64,000 nt of DNA, taken from NCBI GenBank assembly GCA_021789935.1, contig JAJYIR010000010.1, positions 3,065 through 67,064 of the forward strand, read 5' to 3'. The notes beneath the pieces are model-generated. The model saw only the letters and a list, made by a program, of their open reading frames with translations. It did not search any database and was not told where the DNA came from. The DNA is from Nitrospirota bacterium. GTDB taxonomy: Bacteria; Nitrospirota; Thermodesulfovibrionia; Thermodesulfovibrionales; JdFR-88. This document shows positions 67 through 23,110 of the stretch, in pieces. A program made the position numbers and the translations under genes. How positions within the stretch are numbered: the first letter of the stretch is position 1; the number at the start of each line of letters is the position of its first letter.

Positions 67-360
67 ATGAAAGAACTCAACAAAATAAAAGATATTCTAA
101 ATAAGCACCGGGATGAGCTGCGGGAAAAGTACAAGATTACGGAAATCGGTATATTTGGCTCTTATATAAGGGGCGAGCAAAAAAAAGAGAGCGATATAGA
201 TGTCCTGGTTGAATTCAGCGAGCCCATTAGCCTGATTGACCTTATCGGAGCAGAAAATTATATTTCCGATCTGATAGGGAGAAAGGTCGATCTCGTACCC
301 AGAGAGGATATCCGGCCTGAACTGAAACAGGTTATTCTTGACGAGGTGGTTTACATTTGA
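67..360 (+). CDS. mntA: MntA-like minimal nucleotidyltransferase (antitoxin of a HepT/MntA type VII TA pair)
   Basis: 97-aa ORF with the GS-x-RGE...DIDVLV nucleotidyltransferase signature (GSYIRGEQKKESDIDVLVEF). SD-like taggag lies just upstream. Its stop overlaps the TTG start of the downstream HEPN gene by 4 nt. Confidence 0.8.
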   Translation: MKELNKIKDILNKHRDELREKYKITEIGIFGSYIRGEQKKESDIDVLVEFSEPISLIDLIGAENYISDLIGRKVDLVPREDIRPELKQVILDEVVYI

Positions 361-719
361 AGCGCGATATATCGCTGTACGTGAAGGATATCCTGGAAGC
401 AATGGAAAAGGCCGAGGGCTTTATAGGCGCGATGGGCCAGCAGGATTTCCTTCTTGATGCGAAAACCAATTTTGCTGTTGTGCGGTGTCTTGAAATAATC
501 GGCGAGGCCACAAAAAATATCCCGGATGCTATCAGGGAAAAATACAAGGATATCCCGTGGCGTGACATGGCTGGCATGAGGGACAAAGTGAGCCATTTCT
601 ATTTTGGGACTGATTTCAATAAGGTCTGGCTCGCCGTCAAAAGGGATATTCCGATTTTGAAGCCCCGAATAAAAAAGGTTCTTACGGATCTCAGTGCACC
701 TCCTGAATCTGGCCGATAA
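357..719 (+). CDS. hepT: HepT-like HEPN/DUF86 toxin
   Basis: 120-aa ORF with an Rx4H HEPN motif (GMRDKVSHFYF). Translationally coupled to the upstream nucleotidyltransferase gene, the usual MntA/HepT arrangement. Confidence 0.75.
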   Translation: MKRDISLYVKDILEAMEKAEGFIGAMGQQDFLLDAKTNFAVVRCLEIIGEATKNIPDAIREKYKDIPWRDMAGMRDKVSHFYFGTDFNKVWLAVKRDIPILKPRIKKVLTDLSAPPESGR

Positions 720-1169: not shown

Positions 1170-1952
1170 ATGCTTATTATAGGCGAGAAGCTGAGCATAA
1201 TAGCCAAAAGGGTCCGTGAAGCGATGTTCAAAAAGGACAAGGGCCCCATCCAGGAGATAGCAAAGGCGCAGTGGAACGCCGGCGCAAGGATGATAGATGC
1301 CAACATAGGCCCGGCGGAAGACGGGGGAGAGGAACTGATGCAATGGATGGTGAGGACCATCCAGGAGGCTGTCCCGTCCCCGATATGCCTGGATACGACA
1401 AACGCGAAGGCCATAGAGGCGGGCCTCCAGGTGCATGATAACCAGTGGGGCAGGGCGCTCATCAACTCGACTTCCAACGACCCGGAAAGGTTCCCGATTC
1501 TGGAGCTTGCGGCAAAGTACAACTGCCAGGTGATAGGGCTCACCGTGGGCAAGGGCGGGCTGCCAGCGGACGCTGAAGAGAGGTGCGGCATAGCCGCCGA
1601 GATAATGGCGAGGGCCATGGAATACGGGGTGCCGCTCGAAGACCTGTACCTGGACCCGCTTGTGCTCCAGATAGCGACTTCCCAGGACCACGCCATGCAT
1701 GTGATAAAGGCGATAAAAATGTTCCAGGAACTTAATGACCCGGCCATGAAGACCGTAGTGGGGTTAAGCAATATTTCAAACGGCTGTCCCAAGAACGTAA
1801 GGCCGCTGATGAACAGGCAGTACTTCGCGCTGCTTATGTACCACGGGCTTACCTCGGCCATAGCGGACGCGGCCGAACTCTCCGAGATAGCAAAGACCAT
1901 GGACGTAATCATGGGCAAGACGCTTTATGCCCATTCATATCTAGAGATGTAG
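1170..1952 (+). CDS. acsE: Methyltetrahydrofolate:corrinoid/iron-sulfur protein methyltransferase
   Basis: 260 aa. Pterin-binding MeTr-type sequence (DANIGP, INSTS, GLSNISNG blocks). SD aaggag upstream. First gene of an acs cluster. Confidence 0.85.
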   Translation: MLIIGEKLSIIAKRVREAMFKKDKGPIQEIAKAQWNAGARMIDANIGPAEDGGEELMQWMVRTIQEAVPSPICLDTTNAKAIEAGLQVHDNQWGRALINSTSNDPERFPILELAAKYNCQVIGLTVGKGGLPADAEERCGIAAEIMARAMEYGVPLEDLYLDPLVLQIATSQDHAMHVIKAIKMFQELNDPAMKTVVGLSNISNGCPKNVRPLMNRQYFALLMYHGLTSAIADAAELSEIAKTMDVIMGKTLYAHSYLEM

Positions 1953-1969: not shown

Positions 1970-2914
1970 ATGCCATTTACACCGCCTAAAGAGAGCTATA
2001 ACGGAAAGATATTCGAACTTGCCCTTGGCAGCGGCGAAAAAGCGCTTGCGATAGGCGGCGAAAATGTCCTTTCGTTCCACGGATTTGAGGGAAGCACCCC
2101 GAGAAAGCCGGTAATCGCGATGGAGGTGCAGGACATCGCCCCCGCGGACTGGCCGCAGACCGTACAGGACGTATATAAGGATGTCTCCGGAGACCCGGTG
2201 GCGTGGGCTCTGCACTGCCAGGACAAACTTGGCGCGGAGGCCATCGCCCTGAGGCTTACTGGCACCCACCCGGACAAAGGCGATATCAGCGCGGAGCAGG
2301 CAGCGGCAACTGTTAAAAAAGTTCTTGAGGCCATAAAGGTACCCCTTATCATACTTGGTTCCAACCATGCGGAGAAGGACACGGCCGTGCTCGTGAAGGC
2401 AGCGGAGGCGGCCAAGGGGTCCAACTGCGTTATCGGAAAGGCCCAGGAGGCGAACTACAAGACGATAGCCGCTGCGGCGATGGCCAATGATCTGAAACTC
2501 ATAGCCATGAGCGAGCTGGACATAAACCTCTCAAAGCAGCTCAACATACTTATCACGCAGATGGGTTTCGACAGGGAGAAGCTGATAACCGACCCGATGT
2601 GTTCGGCCCTGAGCTATGGCCTGGAATACACTTATTCGGTCATGGAGAGGATAAAGCTGGCGGCCCTGGCCCAGAACGATCCCGTCCTTCAGCCCCCGAT
2701 GCTGGCGGACGCCGGCATGTACGTCTGGAAGGTAAAAGAGACCCAGGCCCCGGAAGCCGGCCTGCCGGAGTGGGGGAGCCTCGCCGAAAGAGGCATCGCA
2801 TGGGAAGCGGTCACGGCTTCGTCCTTTCTTGTCTCTGGGGCGGATATGCTCATTATGAGGCACCCAGCCGCCGTCGAAGCGGTCAAAAAGTTCATAGCCG
2901 AGATGGAGGTCTAG
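1970..2914 (+). CDS. acsD: Corrinoid iron-sulfur protein small subunit (CdhD/AcsD family)
   Basis: 314 aa, no Cys cluster, AcsD/CdhD-like sequence. Sits between acsE and acsC with gaps of 17 and 6 nt. Confidence 0.85.
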   Translation: MPFTPPKESYNGKIFELALGSGEKALAIGGENVLSFHGFEGSTPRKPVIAMEVQDIAPADWPQTVQDVYKDVSGDPVAWALHCQDKLGAEAIALRLTGTHPDKGDISAEQAAATVKKVLEAIKVPLIILGSNHAEKDTAVLVKAAEAAKGSNCVIGKAQEANYKTIAAAAMANDLKLIAMSELDINLSKQLNILITQMGFDREKLITDPMCSALSYGLEYTYSVMERIKLAALAQNDPVLQPPMLADAGMYVWKVKETQAPEAGLPEWGSLAERGIAWEAVTASSFLVSGADMLIMRHPAAVEAVKKFIAEMEV

Positions 2915-2920: not shown

Positions 2921-4261
2921 ATGGCGCTAACCGGAGTCGAAATTTTCAAGCTGTTGCCAAAAACCAACTGCAAGAAGTGCGGGCAGCCCACCTGCCTTGC
3001 CTTTGCCATGAAGCTTGCCCAGAGACAGGTTTCCCTCGATCAGTGCCCCGATGTCTCCGAGGAGTCGAAACAGAAGCTTGGCGAGGCCTCCGCGCCGCCT
3101 ATCAGGCCGGTAACGCTGGGCGCCGGAACCAGGGCTGTGAAGATGGGCGAGGAGACGGTCCTTTTCAGGCATGAAAAGAAGTTCGTGAACCCGTGCGCCT
3201 TCGCCGTCAAAATAGAGGATACGCTTTCCGAGGCTGATGCCGCAAAGAAGATAGACGAGGTGCTGGCTTCCGAGATAGACAGGGTCGGCCAGAAGCTGAG
3301 GGTGGACGCCATGTTCCTTTCAAACGATTCGGGAGATGCCGCAAAGCTTGAGGCGCTCGCCAAACTGGCTGCCCAAAAGGCCCCCGATGTGCCGGTAATA
3401 ATATCCACGGTGAACCCGGATGCGGCCGGGGCCGCCCTGGGCCATTTCAGCGGCAAGAACGCTGTGCTCTACGGCGCCAACGCCGGCAATCTGCCGGCGA
3501 TGGCTGAAAAAGCAAAGGCCGCGAAGGCCGCGCTGGGCATAGCCGCCAAAAACCTTGACGAGCTTTCGGATCTGACAGAGAAGGCCAAGGGCCTAGGCAT
3601 AGAGGATATGGTGATAGACTCCGGGGCGCGCAAGGCCGGAGAGATACTCAGGGACAACACCTACATAAGAAGGGCCGCCCTTAAAAAGGGAATCAAACAG
3701 GTTGGCTACCCCGTCATAAACTTTGCGGAGCGCGGGGACGAGATGCTGGAGAGCCTGGTTGCCGGGCTGGCAGTCAAAAAATACGGCTCCATTGTCGTGC
3801 TCGGCGCGGTCCGGAAATGGAAAGACCTTGTCCTCTTCTCGCTCAGGCAGAATATATACACGGACCCGCAGGTGCCTATGCAGGTCCAGCAGAAAGTATA
3901 CAAGATCGGGGAGCCGGGGCCGAAATCCCCCTTCCTTATTACGACGAACTTTTCTCTCACTTACTTTATAGTTTCCGGCGAGATAGAAAACTGCAAGGTG
4001 CCCTGCCGTCTTGCAGTAATGGACTCCGAGGGGCTTTCGGTCCTTACCGCATGGGCCGCGGGCAAGTTCACGGCTTCCAGGATATCCCAGTTTATAACCG
4101 AAAGCGGTATCGGGGAAGAGCTTGAACAGAAGGAGCTCATCATTCCGGGCTATGTTGCCATTCTTAGCGGAGCGATAGAGGACAAGCTGCCCGGCTGGAA
4201 GATAACTGTCGGCCCCAGGGAGGCAAACGGCTTGCCAGCGTTCCTGAAGGCCAGGGCGTAA
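2921..4261 (+). CDS. acsC: Corrinoid iron-sulfur protein large subunit (CdhE/AcsC family)
   Basis: 446 aa. N-terminal 4Fe-4S motif CKKCGQPTCLAF...QCP typical of AcsC, followed by a TIM-barrel/corrinoid-binding-like region. Confidence 0.85.
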   Translation: MALTGVEIFKLLPKTNCKKCGQPTCLAFAMKLAQRQVSLDQCPDVSEESKQKLGEASAPPIRPVTLGAGTRAVKMGEETVLFRHEKKFVNPCAFAVKIEDTLSEADAAKKIDEVLASEIDRVGQKLRVDAMFLSNDSGDAAKLEALAKLAAQKAPDVPVIISTVNPDAAGAALGHFSGKNAVLYGANAGNLPAMAEKAKAAKAALGIAAKNLDELSDLTEKAKGLGIEDMVIDSGARKAGEILRDNTYIRRAALKKGIKQVGYPVINFAERGDEMLESLVAGLAVKKYGSIVVLGAVRKWKDLVLFSLRQNIYTDPQVPMQVQQKVYKIGEPGPKSPFLITTNFSLTYFIVSGEIENCKVPCRLAVMDSEGLSVLTAWAAGKFTASRISQFITESGIGEELEQKELIIPGYVAILSGAIEDKLPGWKITVGPREANGLPAFLKARA

Positions 4262-4284
4262 TCCGTCTGATTTTCTGAAGGACA

Positions 4285-4301
4285 GTCCCCTTTTGGGGGA
4301 C
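4285..4301 (+). terminator. Stem-loop after acsC (possible attenuator/terminator, no U-tract)
   Basis: GTCCCC-TTTTG-GGGGAC hairpin 24 nt after the acsC stop, followed by about 290 nt of AT-rich non-coding DNA. Confidence 0.25.
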
Positions 4302-4590
4302 AAGTGAAGCCGGAACTGTTTGTATTTTTTATTTCAAGTTGTAGATTTGTTTATAAATTGGTAAATTATACGTTTAGCTTTAAGAATCTGTGGCGTAAAT
4401 CTTTAAAATAGTATCTCAGAAACCGAGCCGGAGACGGCGGTGCAGGCCTTTTTTGTTTTCGCATGAAAGAAAAAACTGCGGGGCCCGATCCGGCTTGCTT
4501 ATCCTGGAATCCATCAAACGCGTACAAAAAAACCTGACTAAATATTCCCTAGGTCATTTTTTTAAAGACGGAGGACAAAACAAAAAAATC

Positions 4591-5091
4591 ATGAAGATAG
4601 AAAATATTGACGTAGACGGCCATTACAGGGAAATAGGCGAAGTCCTCACGGACGAGCAGAAAAAAAGAGGGGTGCTCATTCATGCCCTTCAAAAGCTCCA
4701 GAAAGAGCATAATTACCTGCCTGAAGACAGGCTGAGGGCCCTTTCAAAGAAGCTGGACATCCCCCTTGCGGAAATATACAGCACAGCTTCCTTTTACAAG
4801 CATTTCTACTTCAAGCCCAGGGGCAAAAACATTGTCTGCGTTTGCACCGGAACGGCCTGCCACGTGCGGGGTGCCTCAAAGGTGCTCCAGCAGATAGAAG
4901 ACGAATTCGGGGTGAAAGAGGGGCAGACCACGGCCGACATGTCCCTGACGCTTGAGACCGTCGGATGTGTCGGGTGCTGCGGGCTGGCGCCGGTCGTGAC
5001 GGTAAACGATGAGGTAATCGGGGAGGCCGGCCCCAAAAAGGTAGGCGGGATAATAGATAAAGTCAGGGCCAGGGGCGGGGAGGACGAATAA
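4591..5091 (+). CDS. NuoE/HoxE/HndA-like thioredoxin-fold [2Fe-2S] subunit
   Basis: ATG at 4591 is preceded by the SD gacggagga; the track ORF from 4453 adds an implausible N-terminus. Motif CTGTAC...CVGCCGLAP (Cx4C...CxxxC) of the 24-kDa subunit family. Confidence 0.8.
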   Translation: MKIENIDVDGHYREIGEVLTDEQKKRGVLIHALQKLQKEHNYLPEDRLRALSKKLDIPLAEIYSTASFYKHFYFKPRGKNIVCVCTGTACHVRGASKVLQQIEDEFGVKEGQTTADMSLTLETVGCVGCCGLAPVVTVNDEVIGEAGPKKVGGIIDKVRARGGEDE

Positions 5092-5096
5092 AACCG

Positions 5097-7442
5097 ATGG
5101 GAACAAAAAGGCTGCAGAACATAGATGATTTAAAGGCGCTGAGGGCGAGGCTGGAGGCTGAGGTCTTCCAACCGGGACGGGCCAGGGCAAGGGTATGCTG
5201 CGGCACAGCCTGCACCGCCCTGGGCTCGCACAAGGTCATAAGCGCACTCGAAGAGGATGCCGGGAAAAGGGGCATTGATGTGGAGATAGTAAAGACCGGA
5301 TGCCAGGGCATGTGCCAGAAGGGCCCGGTCATGAAGGTGGAGCCGGAGGGCATCTTCTACCAGAGGGTTAAAGCCTGGCAGGTGCCGGACCTCGTAAGCT
5401 ATACGCTTGTGGGGAAGACGCCTTACAGGAACGCCCTTTACAGGAAGGACATACTCAGCGAGCCGATTGCTGACATGCTGGAGCTGCCTTTTTATAAAAA
5501 ACAGATGCGCATCGCGCTTCGCAACAATGACAAGATTGACCCCACGAACATCCTTCACTACATAGCGGTGGGCGGATACAAGGGGCTTGAAAAAGCGCTT
5601 TCCACCATGACCCCTGATGGCGTCATGGATGAGGTGGACGAGGCGAACCTGAGGGGCAGGGGCGGCGCCGGTTTCCCGGCGGGCAAAAAGTGGAGACACG
5701 CGAAAAGCGGCCCGGAGCACACGAAGTTTGTTATCGCAAACGGCGACGAGGGAGACCCGGGGGCCTTCATGGACCGCTCCATAATGGAGGGAGACCCGCA
5801 CAGCCTGTTTGAGGGGATGCTCCTTTGCGCCTACGCCATCGGCGCCAAATACGGGTTCGTGTACGTCAGGCACGAGTATCCGCTAGCGGTGAAGCACCTG
5901 AAGCACGCGATCTTCCAGGCTGAGGAACTTGGCCTGCTAGGCAACAATATCCTCGGCACGGCTTTCAGTTTTCATCTCGATGTGAGGGAAGGCGCCGGGG
6001 CCTTCGTATGCGGCGAATCAACTGCGCTTGTGGCCTCGATAGAGGGGGAGCGCGGGTTCCCGAGGCCTCGTCCCCCAAGGCTCTCTGAGCGGGGCGGCGG
6101 CGTGTGGGGTTACCCGAGCAACCTGAACAACATAGAGACATATGCATGCGTGGCGCCGATTATAGAGAAGGGGGCGGGCTGGTTCAGGAGCATAGGCACC
6201 GAGACCTCGCCGGGCACAAAAGTCTTCGCGCTTACCGGCAAGGTCAAGAACACAGGCCTCGTCGAGGTGCCGATGGGCATGACCCTGCGGGAGATAATAT
6301 ACGGCATCGGCGGGGGGATCATTGACGACAAGAAGTTGAAGGCAGTCCAGACCGGCGGGCCTTCCGGCGGCTGTCTGCCCGCGAGCTATCTGGACCTGAA
6401 GGTGGATTTTGACTCGCTCTGGAAGTCAGGCTCCATGATGGGCTCGGGCGGCATGGTCGTAATGGATGAGGACACCTGCATGGTGGACGTGGCCAAATAC
6501 TTTCTCTCCTTTACCCAGTCGGAATCCTGCGGCAAATGCCCTCCATGCAGGATCGGCACTTACCAGATGCTCCAGATACTGGAGAGGATAACGAAGGGGC
6601 AGGGAGAGATGGGCGACATAGAGAGGCTCATAAGCATAGGCCACATGGTACAGAAGGGCTCACTGTGCGGCCTTGGCCAGAGCGCGCCCAACCCGGTTTT
6701 AAGCACGATAAAGTATTTCAGGCAGGAATACGAGGAGCACATCTATGACAAATACTGCAGTGCCAAGGCCTGCAAGGGCATGGGCGTGTTCGCCATCAAC
6801 CTCACAGAGTGCATACGGTGCGGCCTGTGCAAGGAGGCCTGCGCCTATGGCGCCGTAAAAGAGGGCAAGGACAAGTTCTTCATAGACAGGGACGGCTGCC
6901 GGCAGTGCAAGGCCTGTTATGACGTCTGTCCCGTGGGCGCGGTCAAGATAAGGAAGCACAGCGTGGCCAGGCTGGAGGAACAGTTCAGGATCCCCGCGGA
7001 TAAGATAGAGATACTTGAAAGGAGGGTCAGCATGACGCTTAAAGACCTCGTAGAAGCAAAACCCGCCAAATTCGTTTCCTGCGGCGAAGATTGTCCCGTG
7101 ACCGATGCCGTCACGAAGATGGACGGCCAGAACGTCGGTTCCATACTGGTTTTCAATAACCGGCAGAAACTGGTGGGCATATTCACGGAGAGGGACATCA
7201 TGCACTGCTTTGCCAAGAACGTCCAGTTCAATCAGAAAACGATCAAGGACGTGATGTCGCAAAACCCTGTGACGCTCGATGCGGCCACGGACATAAGCGT
7301 GGCGGTCAGCCTCATGTCCGAAAGGAAGATAAGGCATCTTCCCGTGATGGAGAACGAAAAGATAATAGGCATCGTCTCCTACAGGGACCTGGTGTCCTAT
7401 ATGCTGCCTGAAATTATCTTCATGGCCGAAGACATCTACTAG
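5097..7442 (+). CDS. NuoF/HoxF/HydB-like FMN- and NAD(H)-binding flavoprotein, with N-terminal [2Fe-2S] domain, C-terminal 2x[4Fe-4S] ferredoxin domain and a terminal CBS pair
   Basis: 781 aa. GRGGAGFPAGKKW (FMN/NADH site); ESCGKCPPCRIG...LCGLGQSAPNP (N3 cluster); CIRCGLCKEAC and CRQCKACYDVCP (ferredoxin). Residues ~646-781 (nt 7032-7439) form two CBS-like repeats (VGIFTERDIMH..., IIGIVSYRDLVSY). Confidence 0.85.
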   Translation: MGTKRLQNIDDLKALRARLEAEVFQPGRARARVCCGTACTALGSHKVISALEEDAGKRGIDVEIVKTGCQGMCQKGPVMKVEPEGIFYQRVKAWQVPDLVSYTLVGKTPYRNALYRKDILSEPIADMLELPFYKKQMRIALRNNDKIDPTNILHYIAVGGYKGLEKALSTMTPDGVMDEVDEANLRGRGGAGFPAGKKWRHAKSGPEHTKFVIANGDEGDPGAFMDRSIMEGDPHSLFEGMLLCAYAIGAKYGFVYVRHEYPLAVKHLKHAIFQAEELGLLGNNILGTAFSFHLDVREGAGAFVCGESTALVASIEGERGFPRPRPPRLSERGGGVWGYPSNLNNIETYACVAPIIEKGAGWFRSIGTETSPGTKVFALTGKVKNTGLVEVPMGMTLREIIYGIGGGIIDDKKLKAVQTGGPSGGCLPASYLDLKVDFDSLWKSGSMMGSGGMVVMDEDTCMVDVAKYFLSFTQSESCGKCPPCRIGTYQMLQILERITKGQGEMGDIERLISIGHMVQKGSLCGLGQSAPNPVLSTIKYFRQEYEEHIYDKYCSAKACKGMGVFAINLTECIRCGLCKEACAYGAVKEGKDKFFIDRDGCRQCKACYDVCPVGAVKIRKHSVARLEEQFRIPADKIEILERRVSMTLKDLVEAKPAKFVSCGEDCPVTDAVTKMDGQNVGSILVFNNRQKLVGIFTERDIMHCFAKNVQFNQKTIKDVMSQNPVTLDAATDISVAVSLMSERKIRHLPVMENEKIIGIVSYRDLVSYMLPEIIFMAEDIY

Positions 7443-7454
7443 GGGTGATCTTTC

Positions 7455-8057
7455 ATGGATGAGAAGAAGGAACTGAAAGTTGAGGACATAAAGGCCGGCG
7501 CGCAGGCCCTGGGGTGCCCGGTGCAAAAGGCGCTCTATTACGTGGCGGGCTTTCTCGACGGCCCCATGTGCGGCAAGTGCTTCCCATGTTCCCTAGGGAT
7601 ATTCGAGGCCAAAAGAAGGCTGGAGAATATCGCGGAGGGGCGCGGCACCGGGGCGGACATAAGCGCACTTAAGCGGATAGCCGGACACATGCTTGAGGCC
7701 TCCATGTGCAGGAAGGGGAAGGACACGGCGCGTTTCATCATCGAGTGGATGGAGGACGGCGCGTTTTCCGCACACGCGTTTTTTTCTTCCGGCGCGGCGG
7801 GCAGGTGCCCGGGAAAGCAATGTTCGGGGCTCATAGAGTTCAGGGTCGTCCCGGAGAAATGCGAGAGGTGCGGCCTTTGCAAAGACGCATGCACGCATGG
7901 CTCCATATTCGGAGAGAAGAGAAAACCGTACCTCACGGGTTATCCGCCCTTTGAGATAAGGCAAAAAAGATGCGTGAAATGCGGCGTCTGCCTGCGGGCA
8001 TGTCCCGCCGGCGCGATAGAGATCGCGGACGCGGCCACTGAACTTTTAAAGGCCTGA
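7455..8057 (+). CDS. Small Fe-S protein: stand-alone NuoF-C-terminal (N3-type 4Fe-4S) domain fused to a 2x[4Fe-4S] ferredoxin domain
   Basis: 200 aa. MCGKCFPCSLG...SMCRKG mirrors the CGKCxPCRxG...LCGLG cluster-N3 motif of NuoF. Followed by CERCGLCKDAC and CVKCGVCLRACP. Confidence 0.7.
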   Translation: MDEKKELKVEDIKAGAQALGCPVQKALYYVAGFLDGPMCGKCFPCSLGIFEAKRRLENIAEGRGTGADISALKRIAGHMLEASMCRKGKDTARFIIEWMEDGAFSAHAFFSSGAAGRCPGKQCSGLIEFRVVPEKCERCGLCKDACTHGSIFGEKRKPYLTGYPPFEIRQKRCVKCGVCLRACPAGAIEIADAATELLKA

Positions 8058-8124
8058 AAAAGATTTTTTGATTTTTTTACCCGGTTTTTAAGGAAATCAA
8101 GCTCGAATCAGGAGGAGTCCGCTC

Positions 8125-10203
8125 ATGTCGGAAAAGATCGAGGAAAATATTACAGGAAAAAAGTCTGGAACCATAAAAGTAAAGATAAACGGCAGGGAGA
8201 CGGAGGTGCCGGAGGGCGCGAACCTTATCCAGGCCGCGGAGCTTGCCGGCGTGCACATACCGAACCTCTGCTATCTCAAGGGAATGAAGGGCATCGGCGC
8301 CTGCAGGCTCTGTCTGGTCGAGGTCGAGGGCATGAAGGCGCCCCTTACCGCCTGCACCACCAGAGCCAAAGACGGCATGGCGATTACCACGAGCAACGAA
8401 AAGATTGACGAGGTCAGGAAGTTCGTGATAGACCTTATCCTCTCGATGCACCCCCTGGACTGCATGACCTGCACCAAGGCCGGCGTGTGCAGCCTTCAGG
8501 AATATGCCTATGAAATGGGAATCAAAGAGTCCTCCTTCACCAGAAAGAAACAGGGCTATGCGGCGGACGATGCAAACCCGTTCATAAAAAGGGACCCCGA
8601 ATATTGCGTCCTTTGCGGCAAGTGCGTAAGGGTCTGCAAAAGCCAGGGCACAAACGTGCTGGAATTCATGGGCAGGGGTGTGGGCTCAAAGGTCATAACG
8701 GCTGAAGACAGGCCGCTGCAGGAGTCCGGATGCACGTTCTGCGGAAGCTGCGCGGATGTGTGCCCGGTAAACGCGCTTCTTGATGCCGGCATGTGGCGCA
8801 AGGGAAGAGAATGGGATTTTGAGGGCGTCAATTCGACATGCCTGCTTTGCGGCAACAGCTGCGATATAACTGTAAGCACAAAAGACGGCAGGGTCATGAA
8901 GGTAAACGCCGGCCCGAATTACGGCCCGGCGGAGCGGTACATCTGCGCGTACGGAAGATACGGGTTCGATTGCATCGAGGCGGACTCCAGGATAACCGCA
9001 CCCATGAAGCGCGTGGACGGTGAGCTTAAGGAGACAACATGGAAGGACGCCATCCAAACGGCCGCAGACAGGCTGAAGGCCGCTGGCAAGGACGCGGGCT
9101 TCATAGCCACCGCCGGTTTGCTCAATGAAGACGCCCTGGCGCTTAAAAGATTGGCGGAGGGGGCCGGTATATCCAATGCCGATACGACGGCAAGCCTGTA
9201 CTCCACCGCAGAGACGCTTATGTCGGACAGCGCGGACAGCCTTGAATCCGCCGATCTCTTCGTGGTCGTAGACCTGTATCCCGACCAATGGAAAAGGGTG
9301 CTGCCCGGAATTGACGCGGCGATAAGAAAGAGGCTGGAGGCGGGGGCCGGGCTCGTTGTCATCAACAGACGGGAGTCCTCGCTTTCCGCAGTCGCGGCGG
9401 TAAACCTGGCTGGCAGCGAGGCGGATTCCCTGAAATCCTTCGCGCAGGCACTGATCGGCACAGGTCTGAACGGGGCCAGGGAGCTTTTTTCCTCCGCAGT
9501 CTCCGGCGTGGCCGCAGACGAGGATGCAGGGAAGGCCGCGGACCTGTTTGCCAAGGCCAAAAACCCGGTCGTTCTGTCCTCACCGGGCATGTATTTTGCG
9601 GCCGCGAACCTGGGCCTGCTCAAGGGCACGGCCGTTTCGGTCCCGGCAGAGAGCAACGCAAAGGGCATTGCGGCCATAGGCCTGCGCGGGGCCGGAAAGT
9701 CTTATGAAGAGATGGTCTCCGGCGGCGTCATGGCGCTTTATGCCGTTGGCGAGGTGCCTGTCAATGAGCGCCCCCGGACTGGCTTCCTCATTGTCCAGGG
9801 CTCACATATGACGGAGCTTGCCAGGCAGGCGGATGTGGTGCTTCCCTCTGCGGCATACCTTGAGGCTGACGGGACCATAGTCGATTATCTTGGAAGGCCC
9901 AGAAAGGTTTGCAAAGCCGCTGAGCCCGCGGGCGTTGCGAAGCCCCACCGGACGATATTTGCACAGGTGGCGGAGGCAATGGGGCTGGATATAAAAGGGT
10001 CCTGCGCCGGACTTTCGGAGGCAGAGAAAAATCCCGCCTCCGCTGCCCGGACGGCCAAAAAATTCAGGCCCTTTGAGCGCATGGCCTTCGATCATATGGA
10101 GGGTTTCGATATGACGCCGAAGGAGATGATGGAGGCCATGAACGCCGCGGTAATAAACGGCTCCAGGCTCCTTTGGCTCAAGGAAGCGAAGACCAGGGCA
10201 TAA
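8125..10203 (+). CDS. NuoG/HoxU-like Fe-S subunit with a truncated, apparently non-catalytic molybdopterin-oxidoreductase-like domain
   Basis: 692 aa. N-terminal [2Fe-2S] (GACRLCLVEV), His-ligated cluster motif HPLDCMTCTKAGVC, CVLCGKCVRVC, CTFCGSCADVCP, MopB-type CLLCGNSCD. Where formate dehydrogenases carry (Sec/Cys)-His, the sequence reads ISNADTTASLYS. Confidence 0.75.
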   Translation: MSEKIEENITGKKSGTIKVKINGRETEVPEGANLIQAAELAGVHIPNLCYLKGMKGIGACRLCLVEVEGMKAPLTACTTRAKDGMAITTSNEKIDEVRKFVIDLILSMHPLDCMTCTKAGVCSLQEYAYEMGIKESSFTRKKQGYAADDANPFIKRDPEYCVLCGKCVRVCKSQGTNVLEFMGRGVGSKVITAEDRPLQESGCTFCGSCADVCPVNALLDAGMWRKGREWDFEGVNSTCLLCGNSCDITVSTKDGRVMKVNAGPNYGPAERYICAYGRYGFDCIEADSRITAPMKRVDGELKETTWKDAIQTAADRLKAAGKDAGFIATAGLLNEDALALKRLAEGAGISNADTTASLYSTAETLMSDSADSLESADLFVVVDLYPDQWKRVLPGIDAAIRKRLEAGAGLVVINRRESSLSAVAAVNLAGSEADSLKSFAQALIGTGLNGARELFSSAVSGVAADEDAGKAADLFAKAKNPVVLSSPGMYFAAANLGLLKGTAVSVPAESNAKGIAAIGLRGAGKSYEEMVSGGVMALYAVGEVPVNERPRTGFLIVQGSHMTELARQADVVLPSAAYLEADGTIVDYLGRPRKVCKAAEPAGVAKPHRTIFAQVAEAMGLDIKGSCAGLSEAEKNPASAARTAKKFRPFERMAFDHMEGFDMTPKEMMEAMNAAVINGSRLLWLKEAKTRA

Positions 10204-10219
10204 GAATTTTGATTTTTTT

Positions 10220-10249
10220 AATCCGCCCCCGTTTACCCGGGGGCGGATT
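10220..10249 (+). terminator. Strong GC-rich hairpin between the nuoG-like gene and acsB
   Basis: AATCCGCCCCC-(gtttaccc)-GGGGGCGGATT, an 11-bp perfect stem starting 17 nt after the stop. It is flanked by a T-run on the 5' side and an A-rich run on the 3' side, so it is not a textbook + strand intrinsic terminator. Confidence 0.45.
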
Positions 10250-10473
10250 AAATAAAAATCCCATTGAATTTTTCCCCGCCGCCCTCTCCGCGCGTGTGAA
10301 ATACTATTTTTTTTTCTTATTTGTCCATAAGCAGGAATTAGTCACTTTCTTTTTCTGTTATATAATAATAGCTTGGTAAAAAGTTGATTTAGAAAGAAAG
10401 GCTTTTGTAAAATAGATACAATCTGGATGTGGTATCTAATTCCTGTCGAGGATAGAAGGAGGTCGGGGGCAAT

Positions 10474-12672
10474 ATGTCCAAGATAATCGCCACAGCGGCG
10501 ATAAGAGGCGCCAACCGGTTATACAGAGAAGCCGAGGAGTTGCTTGAAAAGGCGATAGCTGAAAAAGGTGAGGGGCACCAGTTTGAATTTGTTGACACCG
10601 CTTTCTATCTTCCTATGATATACGCGATGACAGGCTTTCCGGTTAAGACGCTTGGGGACATGCGGACCGCCCTGGGGTTTGCACGGAAGCTTTTGCATGA
10701 GGAACCCTCGGACCATGTATGGAAGCCGTACCTGGGCGAGGCCCTGGATTCCGGAATGGCCAGCCTTTTTGCCGAGGAGATATGGCTTGCGGCAAGGACC
10801 GTCCTTGGGCTTGAGCCATCCGTTGATCCCGAAACGGGGTATGTCTACAACGGGTTTATAACCGACACCATACAGAGGAACCTGGGCATTCAGCTTGTTG
10901 ACGGCACGATGCCCGGTTTTGCGGCCATCATCGGCGCTGCGCCGGATGACGATACGGCCGTCAAGATAGTCTCCGAACTCCAGGAGAAGAACATCCTCAC
11001 ATTCCTTTCCGGCCATGTCAACGGAAACAGCGTAACCAAACAGCTTTTAAGGAAGGGCGTTGAGCTCGGCTGGGACACAAGGATCGTCCCTCTTGGGCCT
11101 GACACCCGGCACACCCTTTATGCGCTGGACTGGGCAATAAGGGCCTCCCTCATCTTCGGCGGCAAAAAGCCCGGGGATTACAAGGAGCACCTGAAATACC
11201 AGAAGGACAGGGTGTTTGCATTTGCCATGGTGCTTGGAGAGCTTGACGACATAATATGGACAACCGGGGCCGGGGCCATAAACATGGGCTTCCCGGCCGT
11301 TGCCGATACCGATATCCCGGTTGTGCATCCGACCGGCGTTTGCATCTATGAGGAAGTTGACAAGGAATTCGACCACAAGAAGATAGTCCAGAAGGCGATA
11401 GAGGTGAGGGGATTAAAGATCGTGGTTGAGAAGCCCCCGATACCGGTCTCTTACGGCCCGGCCTTCGAAGGAGAGAGGATACGCAAGGAGGACATGTTCA
11501 TAGAGTTCGGGGGCCAGAAGACCCCTGCCTTTGAATGGGTCCGCATGCGTGAGATGGAAGAGGTCGAGGACGGCAAGATCACCATCATCGGCGAAAACTG
11601 GAAAGAGCTCTATGAAAAGGGCGGCAGGATGCCCCTCGGGCTCGTGATAGATGTGGCCGGCAGGAAGATGCAGAAGGACTTCGAGTCTGTCATTGAAAGA
11701 AAAGTGCACCATAGCATAAACGAGGCACAGGGGCTCTGGCACATGGGCCAGAGGGACTTGAACTGGATAAGGATAAGCAACGCGGCAAAGGGAGCAGGCA
11801 TAACCCTGGAACACCTCGGGCAGATATTTTCCACCATGATGAGGCATACGTTCCGTTCCATCATAGACAAGGTGCAGGTCACCATCTATACGGATGAGAA
11901 GGAAGTCCTTGCGGTGAGGGACGAGGCCAGAAAGGCCTATACCGAGAGGGACAAGCGGCTTGGTTCGATGACTGACGAGTCGGTGGAGACTTTTTATTCC
12001 TGCCTTTTGTGCCAGAGCTTCGCCCCAAGCCACGTATGCATCATAACCGCGGAAAGGCTTGGCCTCTGCGGGGCGTACAACTGGCTGGACGCCAGGGCGG
12101 CCTTTGAGATAGACCCCACCGGCGGCAACCAGCCGGTTCCGAAAGGGCAGTTGCTGGACCCGAGATACGGCCGCTACACGGGCGTTGATGAATACCTTAA
12201 AAAATCCACCGGCGGCGCGGTGGAGTCCCTGAACCTGTACACGATAATGGAAAACCCGATGACTTCCTGCGGCTGCTTCGAGTGCATCATAGCCATAGTG
12301 CCGGAGGCAAACGGGGTCATGATAGTGCAAAGGGGGCACCAGGGAATGACGCCTGCCGGAATGAAGTTTTCCACCCTGGCCGGCTCCGTCGGAGGCGGCA
12401 TGCAGACCCCGGGTTTTATGGGCATAGGCAGGAACTTCATCACAAGTAAAAAGTTCCTTGCCGGAGACGGCGGCATAAAGAGGATAGTCTGGATGACCAA
12501 AAACCTCAAAGAAAGCCTGAAGGAGTCCTTCGATGCCAGGGCCGCCGAAGAGGGCGTGCCAGGGCTTCTGGACATGATAGCGGATGAGACCGCGGCTGAG
12601 GATTCCGAAAAGCTCTTGGAATATCTTTCAGGTACGGGGCATCCGGCGCTTGGGATGGACCCGATGATATAA
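10474..12672 (+). CDS. acsB: Acetyl-CoA synthase catalytic subunit (ACS, AcsB/CdhC)
   Basis: 732 aa, colinear by eye with Moorella ACS alpha (FYSCLLCQSFAPSHVCIITAERLGLCGA, LYTIMENPMTSCGCFECI, MQTPGFMGIGR, GHPALGMDPMI C-terminus). Confidence 0.9.
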   Translation: MSKIIATAAIRGANRLYREAEELLEKAIAEKGEGHQFEFVDTAFYLPMIYAMTGFPVKTLGDMRTALGFARKLLHEEPSDHVWKPYLGEALDSGMASLFAEEIWLAARTVLGLEPSVDPETGYVYNGFITDTIQRNLGIQLVDGTMPGFAAIIGAAPDDDTAVKIVSELQEKNILTFLSGHVNGNSVTKQLLRKGVELGWDTRIVPLGPDTRHTLYALDWAIRASLIFGGKKPGDYKEHLKYQKDRVFAFAMVLGELDDIIWTTGAGAINMGFPAVADTDIPVVHPTGVCIYEEVDKEFDHKKIVQKAIEVRGLKIVVEKPPIPVSYGPAFEGERIRKEDMFIEFGGQKTPAFEWVRMREMEEVEDGKITIIGENWKELYEKGGRMPLGLVIDVAGRKMQKDFESVIERKVHHSINEAQGLWHMGQRDLNWIRISNAAKGAGITLEHLGQIFSTMMRHTFRSIIDKVQVTIYTDEKEVLAVRDEARKAYTERDKRLGSMTDESVETFYSCLLCQSFAPSHVCIITAERLGLCGAYNWLDARAAFEIDPTGGNQPVPKGQLLDPRYGRYTGVDEYLKKSTGGAVESLNLYTIMENPMTSCGCFECIIAIVPEANGVMIVQRGHQGMTPAGMKFSTLAGSVGGGMQTPGFMGIGRNFITSKKFLAGDGGIKRIVWMTKNLKESLKESFDARAAEEGVPGLLDMIADETAAEDSEKLLEYLSGTGHPALGMDPMI

Positions 12673-12739: not shown

Positions 12740-14728
12740 ATGGACCATAAAATAAAGAGCGCGAATGAAGCCGCAGAGAAGATAATCGAGTGGGGTGAAT
12801 CTCAGGGACTGGTCACCTGTTTTGAGAGGGCCGAGAAGATGAAGCCCTGCCCGATAGGCGAATCCGGGGCATGCTGCAAGGTTTGCCATATGGGGCCCTG
12901 CAGGCTTGTGGGCGCCAATGCCGAGGAAGAGGCCAGGGGTGTTTGCGGCGCAAACGTCTCAACGATAGCGGCCAGAAACTTCCTGAGGATGGTTGCGGCC
13001 GGGACGTCGGCCCATTCGGACCACGGAAGGAGCATGGCCCTTACCCTGCTTGCCGTGGGAGAAGGGAAGGCAACCGATTACGATATAAAGGACCCCGAAA
13101 AGCTCCTTCGCATGGCGTCCATACTGGAGATACCGGTTGACGGCAAGGAGATAAAGGAGGTCGCAAGAGTCGTTGCCCTGAAGCTGCTCGAGGATTTCAA
13201 CAGGATAGACGGACAGCTCAATTATGCCAAGCGCGCCCCCCGGAAGACCCGTGACAGGTGGAAGAAATGGGGGATAGAGCCCCGCTCCATAGACAGGGAA
13301 GTGGTGGAGGCCATGCACAGGACGAACATGGGCGTGGATCACGATCCCGATCATCTCCTGCTGCATGCCTTGAAGACCTCGCTTGCCGACGGGTGGGCGG
13401 GCTCAATGATATCCACCGATATTTCAGACGTGCTGTTCGGAACGCCCAGGCCCGTACGGGCCCAGGCGTCCTTCGGCATTTTCAAGGAAGACGAGGTAAA
13501 CGTCGTTGTGCACGGGCATGAGCCCACCCTTGCCGAATCCATTGTGGACGTTGTCTCCGAGCCTGAGCTCGTGGAGTACGCAAAATCCAAGGGGGCCAAG
13601 GGCATAAACCTCGGCGGTATGTGCTGCACGGCAAACGAGGTGCTAATGAGGCACGGGATACCGACCTCCGGCAGCTTCACGAACCAGGAGCTTGGCATAA
13701 TGACGGGGCTGGTGGACGCCATAACGGTAGACGTGCAGTGCATAATGCCGGCCATCGTGGAACTTTCAAAGAAGTTCCACACCAAGGTCATAAGCACATC
13801 GGAAAAAGCCATGACGCAGGGCGCGGTGCACATTCCCTTTGATGAGCACCATGCCAAGGAGTCGGCAAGAAAGATGGTGCGCATGGCCATAGACAACTTC
13901 CCGAACAGGACGAAAAAAGGCAAGTACGTGGAATCTGACAAGGCTCCGGTGATAGCCGGGTTCTCACATGAGTATATAGAATACATGCAGGGCGGAAAGT
14001 GGCGCGCCTCCTTCAGGCCGCTCAATGACGCTATAATGGCGGGCCGCGTACGCGGCATCGTGGGCCTTGTGGGATGCGACAATCCCAGGCTGCCCGCGAG
14101 CGGATATTTCAAGTCCCTTGCGATTGAGTTCATCAAGCAGGACGTCCTTGTGGTGACCACCGGATGCGGCGCTGGCGTTTACGGTGCGGCCGGGTACCTT
14201 ACCCCGGAGACCGCCCGTGAGCACGCGGGGCCCGGGCTCCAGGAAGTCTGTGAGGCCATAGGCATACCGCCGATACTTCACATGGGCTCCTGCGTCGACA
14301 ATTCAAGAATACTCACCGTCGCATCGGCCATGGCGGCCGAGGGCGGGCTTTCGGATGAGATAGGCGGGATGCCCGCCGTGGGTATCGCCCCGGAGTGGAT
14401 GAGCGAGAAGGCCATAGCCATAGCCTGCTACTTCGCGGCCTCAGGCGTTCCGGTTATATTCGGAGGCGGACAGTCCCCGGTGGCGGCCAGCAAGGAAGTT
14501 ACGAACATCATGACCAATGTGTGGTACGAAAGGTTCATGGGCAGCCTGCATTTCGAGAAGGACCCGGAAAAGGTGCTGTCCCTTGCCCTTGAGTACATAG
14601 ACAAGGCCAGGGCCGCCCTGAAGCTCAAAAAGTACGAGCCAGGCAGGTTCGGCACGGAGCGCGTGCTTATGGACATGGCAGCAAGAAGAGACATCGGGAA
14701 AGCCGCAAAACCGCACATAGGCCTTTAA
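12740..14728 (+). CDS. acsA: Ni-dependent carbon monoxide dehydrogenase catalytic subunit
   Basis: 662 aa. N-terminal Cys-rich cluster B/D motif (CPIGESGACCKVCHMGPCRL), HGHEP, GMCCTANE, VGCDNP, GSCVDNSR blocks typical of CooS/AcsA. Confidence 0.9.
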   Translation: MDHKIKSANEAAEKIIEWGESQGLVTCFERAEKMKPCPIGESGACCKVCHMGPCRLVGANAEEEARGVCGANVSTIAARNFLRMVAAGTSAHSDHGRSMALTLLAVGEGKATDYDIKDPEKLLRMASILEIPVDGKEIKEVARVVALKLLEDFNRIDGQLNYAKRAPRKTRDRWKKWGIEPRSIDREVVEAMHRTNMGVDHDPDHLLLHALKTSLADGWAGSMISTDISDVLFGTPRPVRAQASFGIFKEDEVNVVVHGHEPTLAESIVDVVSEPELVEYAKSKGAKGINLGGMCCTANEVLMRHGIPTSGSFTNQELGIMTGLVDAITVDVQCIMPAIVELSKKFHTKVISTSEKAMTQGAVHIPFDEHHAKESARKMVRMAIDNFPNRTKKGKYVESDKAPVIAGFSHEYIEYMQGGKWRASFRPLNDAIMAGRVRGIVGLVGCDNPRLPASGYFKSLAIEFIKQDVLVVTTGCGAGVYGAAGYLTPETAREHAGPGLQEVCEAIGIPPILHMGSCVDNSRILTVASAMAAEGGLSDEIGGMPAVGIAPEWMSEKAIAIACYFAASGVPVIFGGGQSPVAASKEVTNIMTNVWYERFMGSLHFEKDPEKVLSLALEYIDKARAALKLKKYEPGRFGTERVLMDMAARRDIGKAAKPHIGL

Positions 14729-14812: not shown

Positions 14813-15649
14813 ATGCATAAGATTATCGAAAAAAAGCTGCTTCGCCCCCCTGATGTATTTTTCTACAAAATCAGCGCCCCGCTTGTGGCCGCGAAGGCCA
14901 AGGCCGGGCAGTTCGTGATAATCAGGCTCCATGAGAAAGGCGAAAGGATACCCCTTTCCCTGGCCGGCATAGATGCGGCCGAAGGGACAATAAGCCTTAT
15001 AGTTATGGCTGTGGGCAAGACGACGGGCGAGATGGCAACCCTTGAGGAAGGCGGCGAGATAAGGGATGTCTGCGGTCCTTTGGGAAATCCCACGCATACG
15101 GAAAACGCGGGGAAGGTAATCCTCGCGGGGGGCGGGTTCGGGATAGCGCCGCTTTATCCCATAGGCAAGGCCTTCCGCGAGGCCGGAAGCAACGTGGCCG
15201 CGCTGATGGGAGCAAGGAGCAAAAGCCTTCTGATATACGAAAACGAGATGAGAGGCATAAGCGACAAGGTCCTGATAACTACCGATGACGGCAGCGCCGG
15301 CATGAAGGGCATAATCACCGACGCGCTCAAAGCGGAGCTTGAGGCCTATGGGGCGGACACGGTGATGGCGGTAGGCCCGGCCCCGATGATGAAGGCCGTG
15401 TGCGAGGCCACCAGGCCGTTTGGAGTGAGGACCATCGTGAGCCTGAACGCTATAATGATAGACGGCACCGGCATGTGCGGCGGCTGCCGCGTGCGTGTTG
15501 GCGATAAGACGAAATTCGCCTGCATTGACGGGCCGGACTTCGATGGGCATCTTGTGGACTGGGACTGCCTGATAAACAGGCAGAGGATGTACAAGACGGA
15601 AGAAAAGGAGTCGTTTGAGGACTGGAAAAAACGGCATAATCTGCCCTGA
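14813..15649 (+). CDS. nfnA: NfnA-like / sulfide dehydrogenase-type FAD and [2Fe-2S] subunit (PyrK-like)
   Basis: 278 aa. FNR-like fold sequence with C-terminal GTGMCGGCRV...C cluster motif. Immediately upstream of a GltD-like partner. Confidence 0.75.
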   Translation: MHKIIEKKLLRPPDVFFYKISAPLVAAKAKAGQFVIIRLHEKGERIPLSLAGIDAAEGTISLIVMAVGKTTGEMATLEEGGEIRDVCGPLGNPTHTENAGKVILAGGGFGIAPLYPIGKAFREAGSNVAALMGARSKSLLIYENEMRGISDKVLITTDDGSAGMKGIITDALKAELEAYGADTVMAVGPAPMMKAVCEATRPFGVRTIVSLNAIMIDGTGMCGGCRVRVGDKTKFACIDGPDFDGHLVDWDCLINRQRMYKTEEKESFEDWKKRHNLP

Positions 15650-17098: not shown

Positions 17099-17408
17099 AA
17101 CTTTTTTCCGGGTTTCAGCTTTTTATGCCAAAAAAAGGGACTTTAGTTCCATTCATCTTTTTTTTGCCTTTTTTGCCTTTTTTGCCCTTTTTGTCTTTCC
17201 CTGCCGGTCTTTTGCCCTGACCCGCAAGAAACCGCGGATCAATATATCGGAGCTGGAAAAAAGGGCCCATGAAATGATCAATGCTGAAAGACGGGATGCG
17301 GGCTTAAGGCCTCTTGCGCTGAACAAAAAACTGGCCGCCATTGCCCGGGAGCACAGCCGCGCTGCGCGCTTGTTTGCGGACGCGAAAGGTTCTTTTTTAA
17401 ATCAATAA
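17091..17408 (+). pseudogene. Decayed CAP/SCP (YkwD-like) domain gene remnant
   Basis: Open frame ...KKRDFSSIHLFFAFFAFFALFVFPCRSFALT...ELEKRAHEMINAERRDAGLRPLALNKKLAAIAREHS... has a signal-peptide-like start plus about the first third of a CAP domain, then stops. The only upstream ATG (17125) is one frame off across an A7 run (17130-17136). Confidence 0.35.
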
Positions 17409-20719: not shown

Positions 20720-20722
20720 TCC

Positions 20723-22432: not shown

Positions 22433-22447
22433 GGAAGGGAGGACGGC

Positions 22448-23110
22448 ATGGCCACTGAGCGGAAGAAGACTTATGTCTGGGAAATCCCGGTCCGGTTGAC
22501 CCATTGGGTCAATTTCTTCTCTATCATCTTCCTTTCGGTAACGGGGTTGTACATTGGCGGGCCTTTTATCCATCCCACCTCCAGTCAAAGCTACACAATG
22601 GGCTGGATGAGGTTTATCCACCTGCTTGCGGGCTATACATTTCTGATGATGGTTATCATCAGGGTTTATTGGGCTTTTGCCGGCAACAGGTACGCCAATT
22701 GGCGGGTGTTTTTGCCCCTTACCCGCAGACAGAGACACGACCTTGGAGACGCCACCAGGTATTACCTGTTCCTGAGCAAAAAACCCCCGTACGCGGCCGG
22801 GCACACCATGTGCGCGGGGGCCGCATATTTTGTGCTGTTTCTGCTGTTTCTGTTTCAGATATTCTCCGGGTTTGCGCTTTTTTCGTACAACAGCCCCGGG
22901 TTTTTCCATACGCTCCTGGGCGGATGGCTTACTGCGTTCATGAATATCCAGGCGATAAGGTTCTGGCACCATATGGTCATGTATTTCATATGGGTGATCG
23001 CCCTTATCCACGTGTATCTGGCTGTATGGCTGGACTCCGTTGAGGGCAACGGACTTATGGGCTCCATCTTCGGTGGGTATAAGTTCATAACCGGCAAGGA
23101 ATGGGAATAA
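22448..23110 (+). CDS. Ni/Fe-hydrogenase b-type cytochrome subunit (HyaC/HupC family)
   Basis: 220 aa, 4 TM helices. N-terminal VWEIPVRLTHWVNF and conserved His positions typical of the family. Directly follows the large subunit. Confidence 0.85.
   Translation: MATERKKTYVWEIPVRLTHWVNFFSIIFLSVTGLYIGGPFIHPTSSQSYTMGWMRFIHLLAGYTFLMMVIIRVYWAFAGNRYANWRVFLPLTRRQRHDLGDATRYYLFLSKKPPYAAGHTMCAGAAYFVLFLLFLFQIFSGFALFSYNSPGFFHTLLGGWLTAFMNIQAIRFWHHMVMYFIWVIALIHVYLAVWLDSVEGNGLMGSIFGGYKFITGKEWE

Follow-up and report, generated by a model that had tools for sequence, protein, structure and literature searches.

What are four genes resembling those for the NuoE, NuoF and NuoG subunits of complex I doing in the middle of a CO dehydrogenase/acetyl-CoA synthase (CODH/ACS) gene cluster? 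The question is raised by a 64-kb stretch of DNA, here called the window, from an uncultured Thermodesulfovibrionia-type Nitrospirota bacterium of mine-drainage metagenome source. The cluster in the window reads, all on the plus strand, acsE-acsD-acsC-[module]-acsB-acsA-nfnA-nfnB (Pfam and NCBIfam searches). All four module genes lie between acsC and acsB, at the coordinates and in the order given by an earlier reading of the letters alone (the sequence-only reading); they are co-oriented, with intergenic gaps of 5, 12 and 67 bp. The best explanation of their sequences is that they encode one soluble complex of the Bfu family (HydABC type), consisting of BfuC, BfuB and BfuA with an extra subunit, X. 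The reading favoured here, tentatively and at a little less than even probability, is that this complex is coupled to CODH/ACS and joins CO2/CO chemistry to NAD(H) and ferredoxin. The features of the module are as follows.

4591-5091 (+): bfuC, NuoE/HydC-like [2Fe-2S] subunit, 166 aa (PF01257, E = 5e-46)
5097-7442 (+): bfuB, HydB-type flavoprotein with flavin mononucleotide (FMN) and NAD(H) sites, 781 aa (Pfam domains, PDB matches)
7029-7439 (+): CBS pair (Bateman domain) at the C-terminus of BfuB (PF00571, two stretches, E = 2e-25)
7455-8057 (+): X, small Fe-S protein, 200 aa (NADH_4Fe-4S plus 2x[4Fe-4S])
8125-10203 (+): bfuA, NuoG-like Fe-S subunit, 692 aa (Pfam domains)

BfuB consists of an N-terminal [2Fe-2S] domain, the Complex1_51K FMN domain (PF01512), an SLBB domain, NADH_4Fe-4S (PF10589), a C-terminal 2x[4Fe-4S] domain and the CBS pair. 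The motifs GRGGAGFP and DEGDPGAF are present, the ligands of the N3-type [4Fe-4S] cluster (C478, C481, C484, C524) are invariant, and those of the extra clusters (C34/C39/C69/C73, H548/C554/C559, C572-C582 and C601-C611) align with 7t2r_B. Across 30 orthologs every cluster ligand is conserved without exception, the His/Cys site H548/C554/C559 included, and so are the ribose-phosphate motifs GxFTERD and SYRD of the CBS pair. Residues 28-616 align with the B subunits of proven bifurcating enzymes. The best PDB match is 7t2r_B (733 bits), and HydB of A. woodii and T. kivui (7q4v/8a6t), StnB (8oh5) and NfnB (9n5u) score 587-703 bits, whereas plain NuoF or FdsB reach about 350 bits or less. Thus the FMN/NAD(H) core recognised by the sequence-only reading stands, but the description as a 51-kDa-type flavoprotein falls short of a protein that has extra Fe-S domains and a CBS pair.

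The other three proteins complete the set. BfuC starts at the ATG at 4591, preceded by a GGAGGA ribosome-binding site, and has the thioredoxin-like [2Fe-2S] fold (PF01257); NuoE and HoxE models match it below the NCBIfam cut-offs. Its cysteine ligands are C85/C90/C126/C130 counted from this ATG (C131/C136/C172/C176 in the TTG-started open reading frame). X corresponds to the C-terminal third of BfuB (residues 461-618, 32% identity), of which it is a paralog encoded on its own; the N3-like CxxCxxC...C motif, the CPxxxC site and the two ferredoxin-type clusters (2x[4Fe-4S]) are retained. Its top PDB matches are the C-termini of HydB proteins, with 89 bits to that of the 7T2R/7T30 enzyme. The family of X is small: in a search of 1.84 billion representatives, its stand-alone relatives at E <= 1e-30 fell into only 14 clusters. 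BfuA has the domains Fer2_4, NADH-G_4Fe-4S_3, Fer4, Molybdop_Fe4S4 and Molybdopterin, and five Fe-S sites (a [2Fe-2S], a His-ligated [4Fe-4S], 2x[4Fe-4S] and an N7-type [4Fe-4S]), whose ligands, 20 of 20, are invariant across orthologs; near its C-terminus the motif NGSRLLWLKE is conserved. Foldseek matched its model to complex I 75-kDa subunits, to FdsA and to HydA of NiFe-HydABCSL; the model is of moderate confidence (pLDDT 66.7, below 50 in the Fe-S region), and TM-scores of 0.4-0.5 support the fold class alone. The module thus has the hallmarks of the Bfu family as defined by Schut et al. 2022 (PMC9304861), namely a BfuB with FMN/NAD(H) site and N3 cluster, additional clusters on BfuB that the non-bifurcating NuoF, FdsB and HoxF do not have, a NuoE-like BfuC and a BfuA that is NuoG-like and similar to the HydA N-terminus. 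The CBS fusion on BfuB and the free-standing HydB arm, X, are, going by the proteins compared, new structural features for this family.

The same proteins could be taken for the N-module of complex I. The highest-ranking NCBIfam models are those of NuoE, NuoF and NuoG, BfuA has the fold and length of a 75-kDa/NuoG subunit, and Schut et al. assigned a BfuB clade of Nitrospirae and Planctomycetes to 'Nuo-Bfu' (PMC9304861). With NuoEFG of Thermus thermophilus (Nqo1-3) the module shares the FMN/NADH site, the N3 and N1a clusters, clusters of the N1b/N4/N5/N7 types and the 75-kDa fold. However, NuoF of complex I has no [2Fe-2S] at its N-terminus, no 2x[4Fe-4S] at its C-terminus and no CBS pair, and the NCBIfam scores for the three models (TIGR01959, TIGR01973 and NF005722) lie under the curated cut-offs (451 vs 559, 341 vs 470 and 137 vs 141). 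Where Nuo-Bfu has been described, the BfuABC genes form part of the nuo operon, whereas neither the window nor any orthologous locus has a nuo gene. Although a membrane arm may be encoded elsewhere in the genome, an N-module role is therefore improbable.

A published genome bears on the same point. Table S2 for Ca. Sulfobium mesophilum lists acsE-acsD-acsC-acsB-cooS as loci 170011-170015 and Nfn as loci 170020-21, with four unlisted loci, 5.3 kb in all, between cooS and nfn (PMC5812927). From the matching size we infer that these four loci are the module, which has evidently been overlooked in published reconstructions. Rnf and a full nuoA-N operon, which includes a canonical nuoEFG, are encoded in that genome too (PMC5812927); if the four loci are indeed the module, it is not the N-module of complex I, nor the cell's sole ferredoxin:NAD+ link.

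If the module is a Bfu complex, where is its third substrate handled? The sequence-only reading saw no hydrogenase or formate dehydrogenase catalytic subunit attached to the module, and this was borne out. No H-cluster was found in the module proteins (no PF02906 match), and the [FeFe] motifs (TSCCP, MPCxxKxxE, ExMxCxxGCxxGxG) and NiFe motifs occurred in none of the 23 clade loci scanned, duplicates and short contigs included; the H-cluster motifs were present in 44 of 150 distant loci.

Two candidates for a cryptic catalytic site were tried and rejected. One is BfuA itself, which has a Molybdopterin-family domain and whose N-terminal 420 residues find their top sequence match in the formate dehydrogenase FdsABG (Rhodobacter capsulatus, PDB 6TG9), with the same order of Fe-S domains. 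The region of the Mo ligand is deleted in BfuA, the position of FdsA Cys386/His387 (the active-site Cys/Sec-His) being an alignment gap, and the C-terminal dinucleotide-binding domain is missing: Molydop_binding (PF01568) is absent from the window BfuA and from 120 of the 120 orthologs listed, while the FDH-type homolog of locus L009, the positive control, shows it (relatives are designated by L numbers). The other candidate is a [NiFe] hydrogenase operon (19637-23701) situated 9.4 kb 3' of the module. Its Tat signal and cytochrome b mark it as periplasmic and membrane-bound, and it is unlinked to the module in relatives. It is therefore hardly credible that the module is a formate dehydrogenase or a hydrogenase in disguise.

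The large-subunit gene of that hydrogenase (20723-22432, +; true start ATG 20723) has a peculiarity of its own. Two in-frame TGA codons (20900-20902 and 20909-20911) stand at both cysteines of the N-terminal Ni-binding motif RxCGxCxxxH, which reads R-I-TGA-G-V-TGA-T-T-V-H, and the C-terminal motif, DPCLAC, has its Cys. Both TGAs are kept in an independent assembly and in a contig of a ~10% diverged strain (21 differences, none of them in the TGAs), which suggests a double selenocysteine rather than a pseudogene. In known [NiFeSe] enzymes selenocysteine is found in the C-terminal motif.

A non-catalytic BfuA has parallels among solved enzymes. Of the solved structures, the one most like the module is NiFe-HydABCSL from Acetomicrobium mobile (PDB 7T2R/7T30, a Bfu enzyme of 'Type 3'), the best PDB match for both BfuB and X. 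Its HydA is a 692-aa NuoG-like protein with a non-catalytic C-terminal domain, like BfuA, and its catalytic module comes from separate genes and docks on the BfuABC core. The difference is that here CODH/ACS genes are linked instead of hydrogenase subunits, and that the CBS pair of BfuB and X are added. StnABC/NfnABC (PDB 8OH5, 9BOV, 9N5U) have close BfuB subunits (637-656 bits), and residues 112-621 of BfuA align with StnA, whose molybdopterin-like domain is likewise inactive. In these enzymes, however, BfuA is fused to a GltD/NfnB-like NADPH domain, whereas the BfuA of the window is without Fer4_20 and Pyr_redox and classical nfnAB are separate genes.

With no third-substrate site inside the module, the conserved neighbour is CODH/ACS, which adjoins it on 11 of 14 contigs. 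The genes flanking the module in the window are listed below.

1170-1952 (+): acsE, methyl-tetrahydrofolate:corrinoid methyltransferase (PF00809 Pterin_bind)
1970-2914 (+): acsD, small subunit of the corrinoid Fe-S protein (PF03599 CdhD)
2921-4261 (+): acsC, large subunit of the corrinoid Fe-S protein (PF04060 FeS and PF03599 CdhD)
10474-12672 (+): acsB, acetyl-CoA synthase (PF18537, PF03598, PF19436)
12740-14728 (+): acsA, Ni-CODH (PF03063 Prismane/CODH, E = 2e-157)
14813-15649 (+): nfnA (with nfnB, NCBIfam PRK06222 and TIGR01316 above cut-offs)
15686-17098 (+): nfnB (see nfnA)

At least 14 distinct contigs of Nitrospirota carry an orthologous module, with BfuB identities of 66-92%. The commonest order, on eight contigs, is (cooC)-acsE-D-C-B-A followed by the module and often then by nfnAB (L003, L004, L006, L007, L163, L165, L166 and L002, the last with an inverted nfnBA between acsA and the module); acsE orthologs in the same position in relatives are 72-97% identical. 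The insertion between acsC and acsB emphasised by the sequence-only reading is seen in three lineages, the window, L169 (92% BfuB identity) and L170/171/172 (78%), but elsewhere the module usually stands after acsA and before nfnAB. The acs linkage thus survives rearrangement, yet it is not obligatory.

A similar association has arisen in a second phylum. In three Planctomycetota loci (L040 of the Pirellulales, L138 and L147) genes for NuoE, a 622-aa HydB-type BfuB and a short HoxU-like BfuA lie among acs genes, the surrounding set comprising acsA, acsB, acsC, RACo, cooC, acsD and acsE; in L138 the Bfu genes are placed between acsA and acsB. In a neighbour-joining tree of BfuB the clade with the CBS pair (18 loci) is separate from the clade of these three loci. 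Linkage of the module with acs exceeds chance, because it is found on 11 of 14 contigs and because similar linkage occurs independently in the second phylum. The case for a functional link with CODH/ACS rests most strongly on the recruitment of two different Bfu modules into acs clusters.

The Planctomycetota loci also bear on a second proposal of the sequence-only reading, that the module supports the corrinoid protein: it would re-reduce the inactive Co(II) form of the corrinoid Fe-S protein to Co(I), replacing the ATP-dependent activator RACo. As that reading had noted, no RACo/AcsV-type activator lies inside the cluster; tblastn with the L040 RACo as query detected none in the whole of the window, and none in the Nitrospirota loci. 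The module of the window lies directly 3' of acsC, and the CBS pair could provide a link to nucleotides. The Planctomycetota clusters, however, contain a bona fide, full RACo together with a Bfu module, so that Bfu is not an alternative to RACo there, and the proposal gains no support from them. The commoner arrangement places the module after acsA, not acsC; a RACo gene may lie elsewhere in the genome; and a NuoG-like wire of five clusters is excessive for an occasional one-electron repair. None of the module proteins has the RACo domains ([2Fe-2S], linker, middle and ASKHA set). Replacement of RACo is accordingly very improbable.

Another accessory gene said to be missing from the cluster, cooC/acsF, is indeed not inside it; a gene of this type stands elsewhere in the window.

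50431-51198 (-): cooC/acsF-type Ni-insertion ATPase, MinD-family (PF01656 CbiA)

This gene lies ~36 kb off the acs cluster and is 65-69% identical to the gene immediately 5' of acsE in L003, L006, L163 and L166. The presence of such a copy elsewhere in the window indicates that cooC in this lineage is displaced, not lost.

The sequence-only reading remarked that characterised acs operons, such as that of Moorella, are not known to contain such a module; the idea nonetheless has precedents in the literature. Inoue et al. 2019 recorded COG1034, COG1894 and COG1905 (NuoG/F/E-like) in the Wood-Ljungdahl-type context of CODHs (PMC6344411), Suzuki et al. 2018 found nuoEF beside CODH/ACS in NPL-UPA2 (PMC6305446), and Schut et al. 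2022 predicted a 'Codh-Bfu' class from four Firmicutes clusters with cooS between bfuB and bfuA (PMC9304861). The Nitrospirota module, the CBS fusion and X are described in none of these three papers, and a 2026 eLife paper on CODH contexts does not mention Nuo or Bfu neighbours.

In concept the module is closest to the predicted Codh-Bfu class. In both, BfuABC genes are interleaved with Ni-CODH genes and a CO/CO2-linked third reaction is predicted. The adjacency that characterises the class is found here too: acsB and acsA directly follow bfuA in the window, and acsA precedes bfuC in eight relatives. The predicted class differs in that its four Firmicutes sequences, with BfuB in clade 49, have a monofunctional cooS with extra Fe-S subunits and a short BfuA of Type 2, whereas in the Nitrospirota the linked genes are those of a bifunctional CODH/ACS and the corrinoid protein, BfuA is long and NuoG-type, and X and the CBS pair are present. 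Novel in the module are the CBS fusion, X, the long form of BfuA and linkage to a bifunctional CODH/ACS.

How might the favoured coupling to CODH/ACS work? Of the functions suggested by the sequence-only reading, supply or withdrawal of electrons between NAD(H), ferredoxin and CODH/ACS is the best supported, because the module has no catalytic domain of its own, a full Bfu cofactor complement and a conserved, recurrent linkage to CODH/ACS. CODH/ACS would provide the third-substrate site through the CODH subunit AcsA. When CO2 is fixed, electrons from NADH and reduced ferredoxin together would reach CODH by way of BfuB, BfuA and X; when acetyl-CoA is oxidised, NAD+ and ferredoxin would each receive a share of the electrons of CO. 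If NiFe-HydABCSL is a guide, BfuA, long and non-catalytic, may conduct the electrons and also provide the surface on which a catalytic module from separate genes docks. The adaptor to CODH may be X, in effect a spare copy of the HydB arm with three clusters, because no cooF or ferredoxin gene is found within the acs/module cluster. An adenine nucleotide is the probable ligand of the CBS pair, which might gate the flow according to adenine-nucleotide status. With HydABC as a template, the stoichiometry would be NADH + 2 reduced ferredoxin + 2 CO2 -> 2 CO for the A-cluster. This would require an effective CO2/CO potential near -400 mV, plausible only if CO is channelled and kept very low. The most explicit version of this scheme, in which CODH/ACS, instead of depending on ferredoxin alone, is the catalytic module of a Bfu super-complex in Wood-Ljungdahl-pathway Nitrospirota and, independently, some Planctomycetota, reversibly reducing CO2 to enzyme-bound CO with NADH and reduced ferredoxin, X as adaptor and the CBS pair as a throttle on carbon fixation set by energy charge, is possible but doubtful.

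Whether the module is transcribed with its neighbours was approached through the signals in the window. The spacer 5' of the module (4262-4590) is 329 bp long and AT-rich (GC 0.40), with a promoter-like site at 4380-4409; that between bfuA and acsB is 270 bp long and AT-rich (GC 0.38), with promoter-like hexamer pairs at 10339-10413, 5' of acsB (10/12 and 9/12 matches). These sites are consensus matches. The two hairpins said to bracket the module fared differently. That at 10220-10249, GC-rich and just 3' of bfuA, is strong (dG -31 kcal/mol, z -5.75, none of 200 shuffles as good), but that at 4285-4301 does not stand out from shuffled sequence (z -1.0). The strong hairpin was rejected as a canonical intrinsic terminator: on both strands a U-tract precedes and an A-tract follows it, and there is no U-tract 3'. 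The spacers 5' of acsE, bfuC and acsB share just short AT-rich k-mers and no convincing common operator site. A separately regulated sub-unit with its own promoters, as had been proposed, is thus possible in the window, given the spacers, the hexamers and one hairpin; but the arrangement of acs and module can be operonic too, since the acs-module junctions of L170 measure merely 79 and 119 bp.

Several observations weigh against the coupling to CODH/ACS. The CO2/CO couple stands at -520 mV under standard conditions, below ferredoxin, so that bifurcation is not obviously needed and a very low CO activity is required. It was precisely at very low CO activity, when the couple becomes mid-potential, that Schut et al. 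considered a bifurcating CODH sensible (PMC9304861). Three contigs (L167/L001/L168, L005 and L173) have the module with no acs gene inside 10 kb, and it is therefore a self-contained unit of four or five genes. In L167 it occupies alone the hisG/scpA site where relatives have acs and nfn, and it thus persists without adjacent acs. In L164 a solo BfuB-CBS is found without the other module genes. Linkage to nfnAB, seen for the acs/module cluster on seven contigs, is nearly as frequent as that to acs, so an alternative partner is available. Co-transcription with acs is not assured in the window because of the long AT-rich spacers and the strong hairpin, and three metatranscriptomes from the same mine-drainage study contained no contigs matching the locus.

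Much of this would fit a different role, that of an autonomous soluble balancer between NADH and ferredoxin, which would work with diffusible carriers, perhaps with NfnAB, and share a Wood-Ljungdahl regulon with acs and nfn without touching CODH/ACS. The contigs with the module but no acs and those with linked nfnAB are as such a balancer would have them, the AT-rich spacers of the window permit separate transcription, and in Aminicenantes Bfu genes adjoin nfnAB in the absence of acs (L008, L009, L020, L026, L048). Yet in Aminicenantes BfuA is a full FDH-type subunit, so that a third site exists there, whereas bifurcation has no meaning for a Bfu core that lacks a third redox partner. Simple ferredoxin:NAD+ exchange would be wasteful and would duplicate the Rnf encoded by related genomes (PMC5812927), and the recruitment of two unrelated Bfu modules into acs clusters would be left unexplained. 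The balancer is thus rather unlikely, if quite conceivable, and coupling to CODH/ACS is retained as the favoured reading.

The coupling bears on the way in which Wood-Ljungdahl organisms at the energetic limit obtain low-potential electrons. How the very low-potential CO2/CO step is paid for matters for Wood-Ljungdahl autotrophs that are not acetogens and for acetate oxidisers, that is, for sulfate reducers, sulfur disproportionators and planctomycetes. Were a Bfu-type module to share the load between NADH and ferredoxin, the energy balance sheets of these organisms would change; in the super-complex version the demand of the carbonyl branch for low-potential electrons would be halved. The module would also be the first concrete example of the predicted Codh-Bfu class. 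The system is widespread in Thermodesulfovibrionia-type Nitrospirota, with more than 120 protein clusters per subunit. A scan of metagenomes for BfuB found only three short close relatives; both collection scans use exact peptide patterns, so that to be missing from their lists is not to be absent. The module appears to be present in a cultured strain, Dissulfurispira thermophila, whose protein JZK55_05520 falls into the same 90%-identity cluster as the X subunit of L163, and the question is probably experimentally tractable in that strain.

Variants of the module were seen in three loci. The solo BfuB-CBS of L164 (10001-12334, 71% identical; BfuC, X and BfuA absent) lies between genes for a LysR regulator and pyruvate carboxylase subunits on one side and for a beta-carbonic anhydrase and an archaeal-type PEP carboxylase on the other, a context related to CO2/bicarbonate. 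The module of L173 (9956-15917) consists of BfuB-CBS, BfuC, a separate 136-aa CBS-only protein, X and BfuA, and adjoins dsrEFH/tusA. L007, from a metagenome-assembled genome (Nitrospiraceae, UBA665), has two tandem bfuB paralogs between bfuC and X (8121-11869), 3' of acsDCBA; the BfuB tblastn matches end at about query residue 629, and no CBS pair was seen.

Other features of the window were noted in passing. A type VII toxin-antitoxin pair lies directly 5' of the acs cluster.

67-360 (+): MntA-like nucleotidyltransferase antitoxin
357-719 (+): HepT-like RNase

The regions 32442-35291 (-) and 23991-26486 (-) encode a pair of neighbouring multihaem cytochromes (Paired_CXXCH) as well as a protein of 831 aa in which Listeria-Bacteroides repeats are combined with a lactonase-type beta-propeller. 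The 11-mer TTCCGGGTTTC is found at 755-765, 5' of acsE, and again at 17106-17116, 3' of nfnB, and so brackets the acs/module/nfn cluster; the chance expectation is about 0.07 matches of this kind. Also 3' of nfnB, the 9-bp unit TTTTTTGCC is repeated in three tandem copies (17160-17186).

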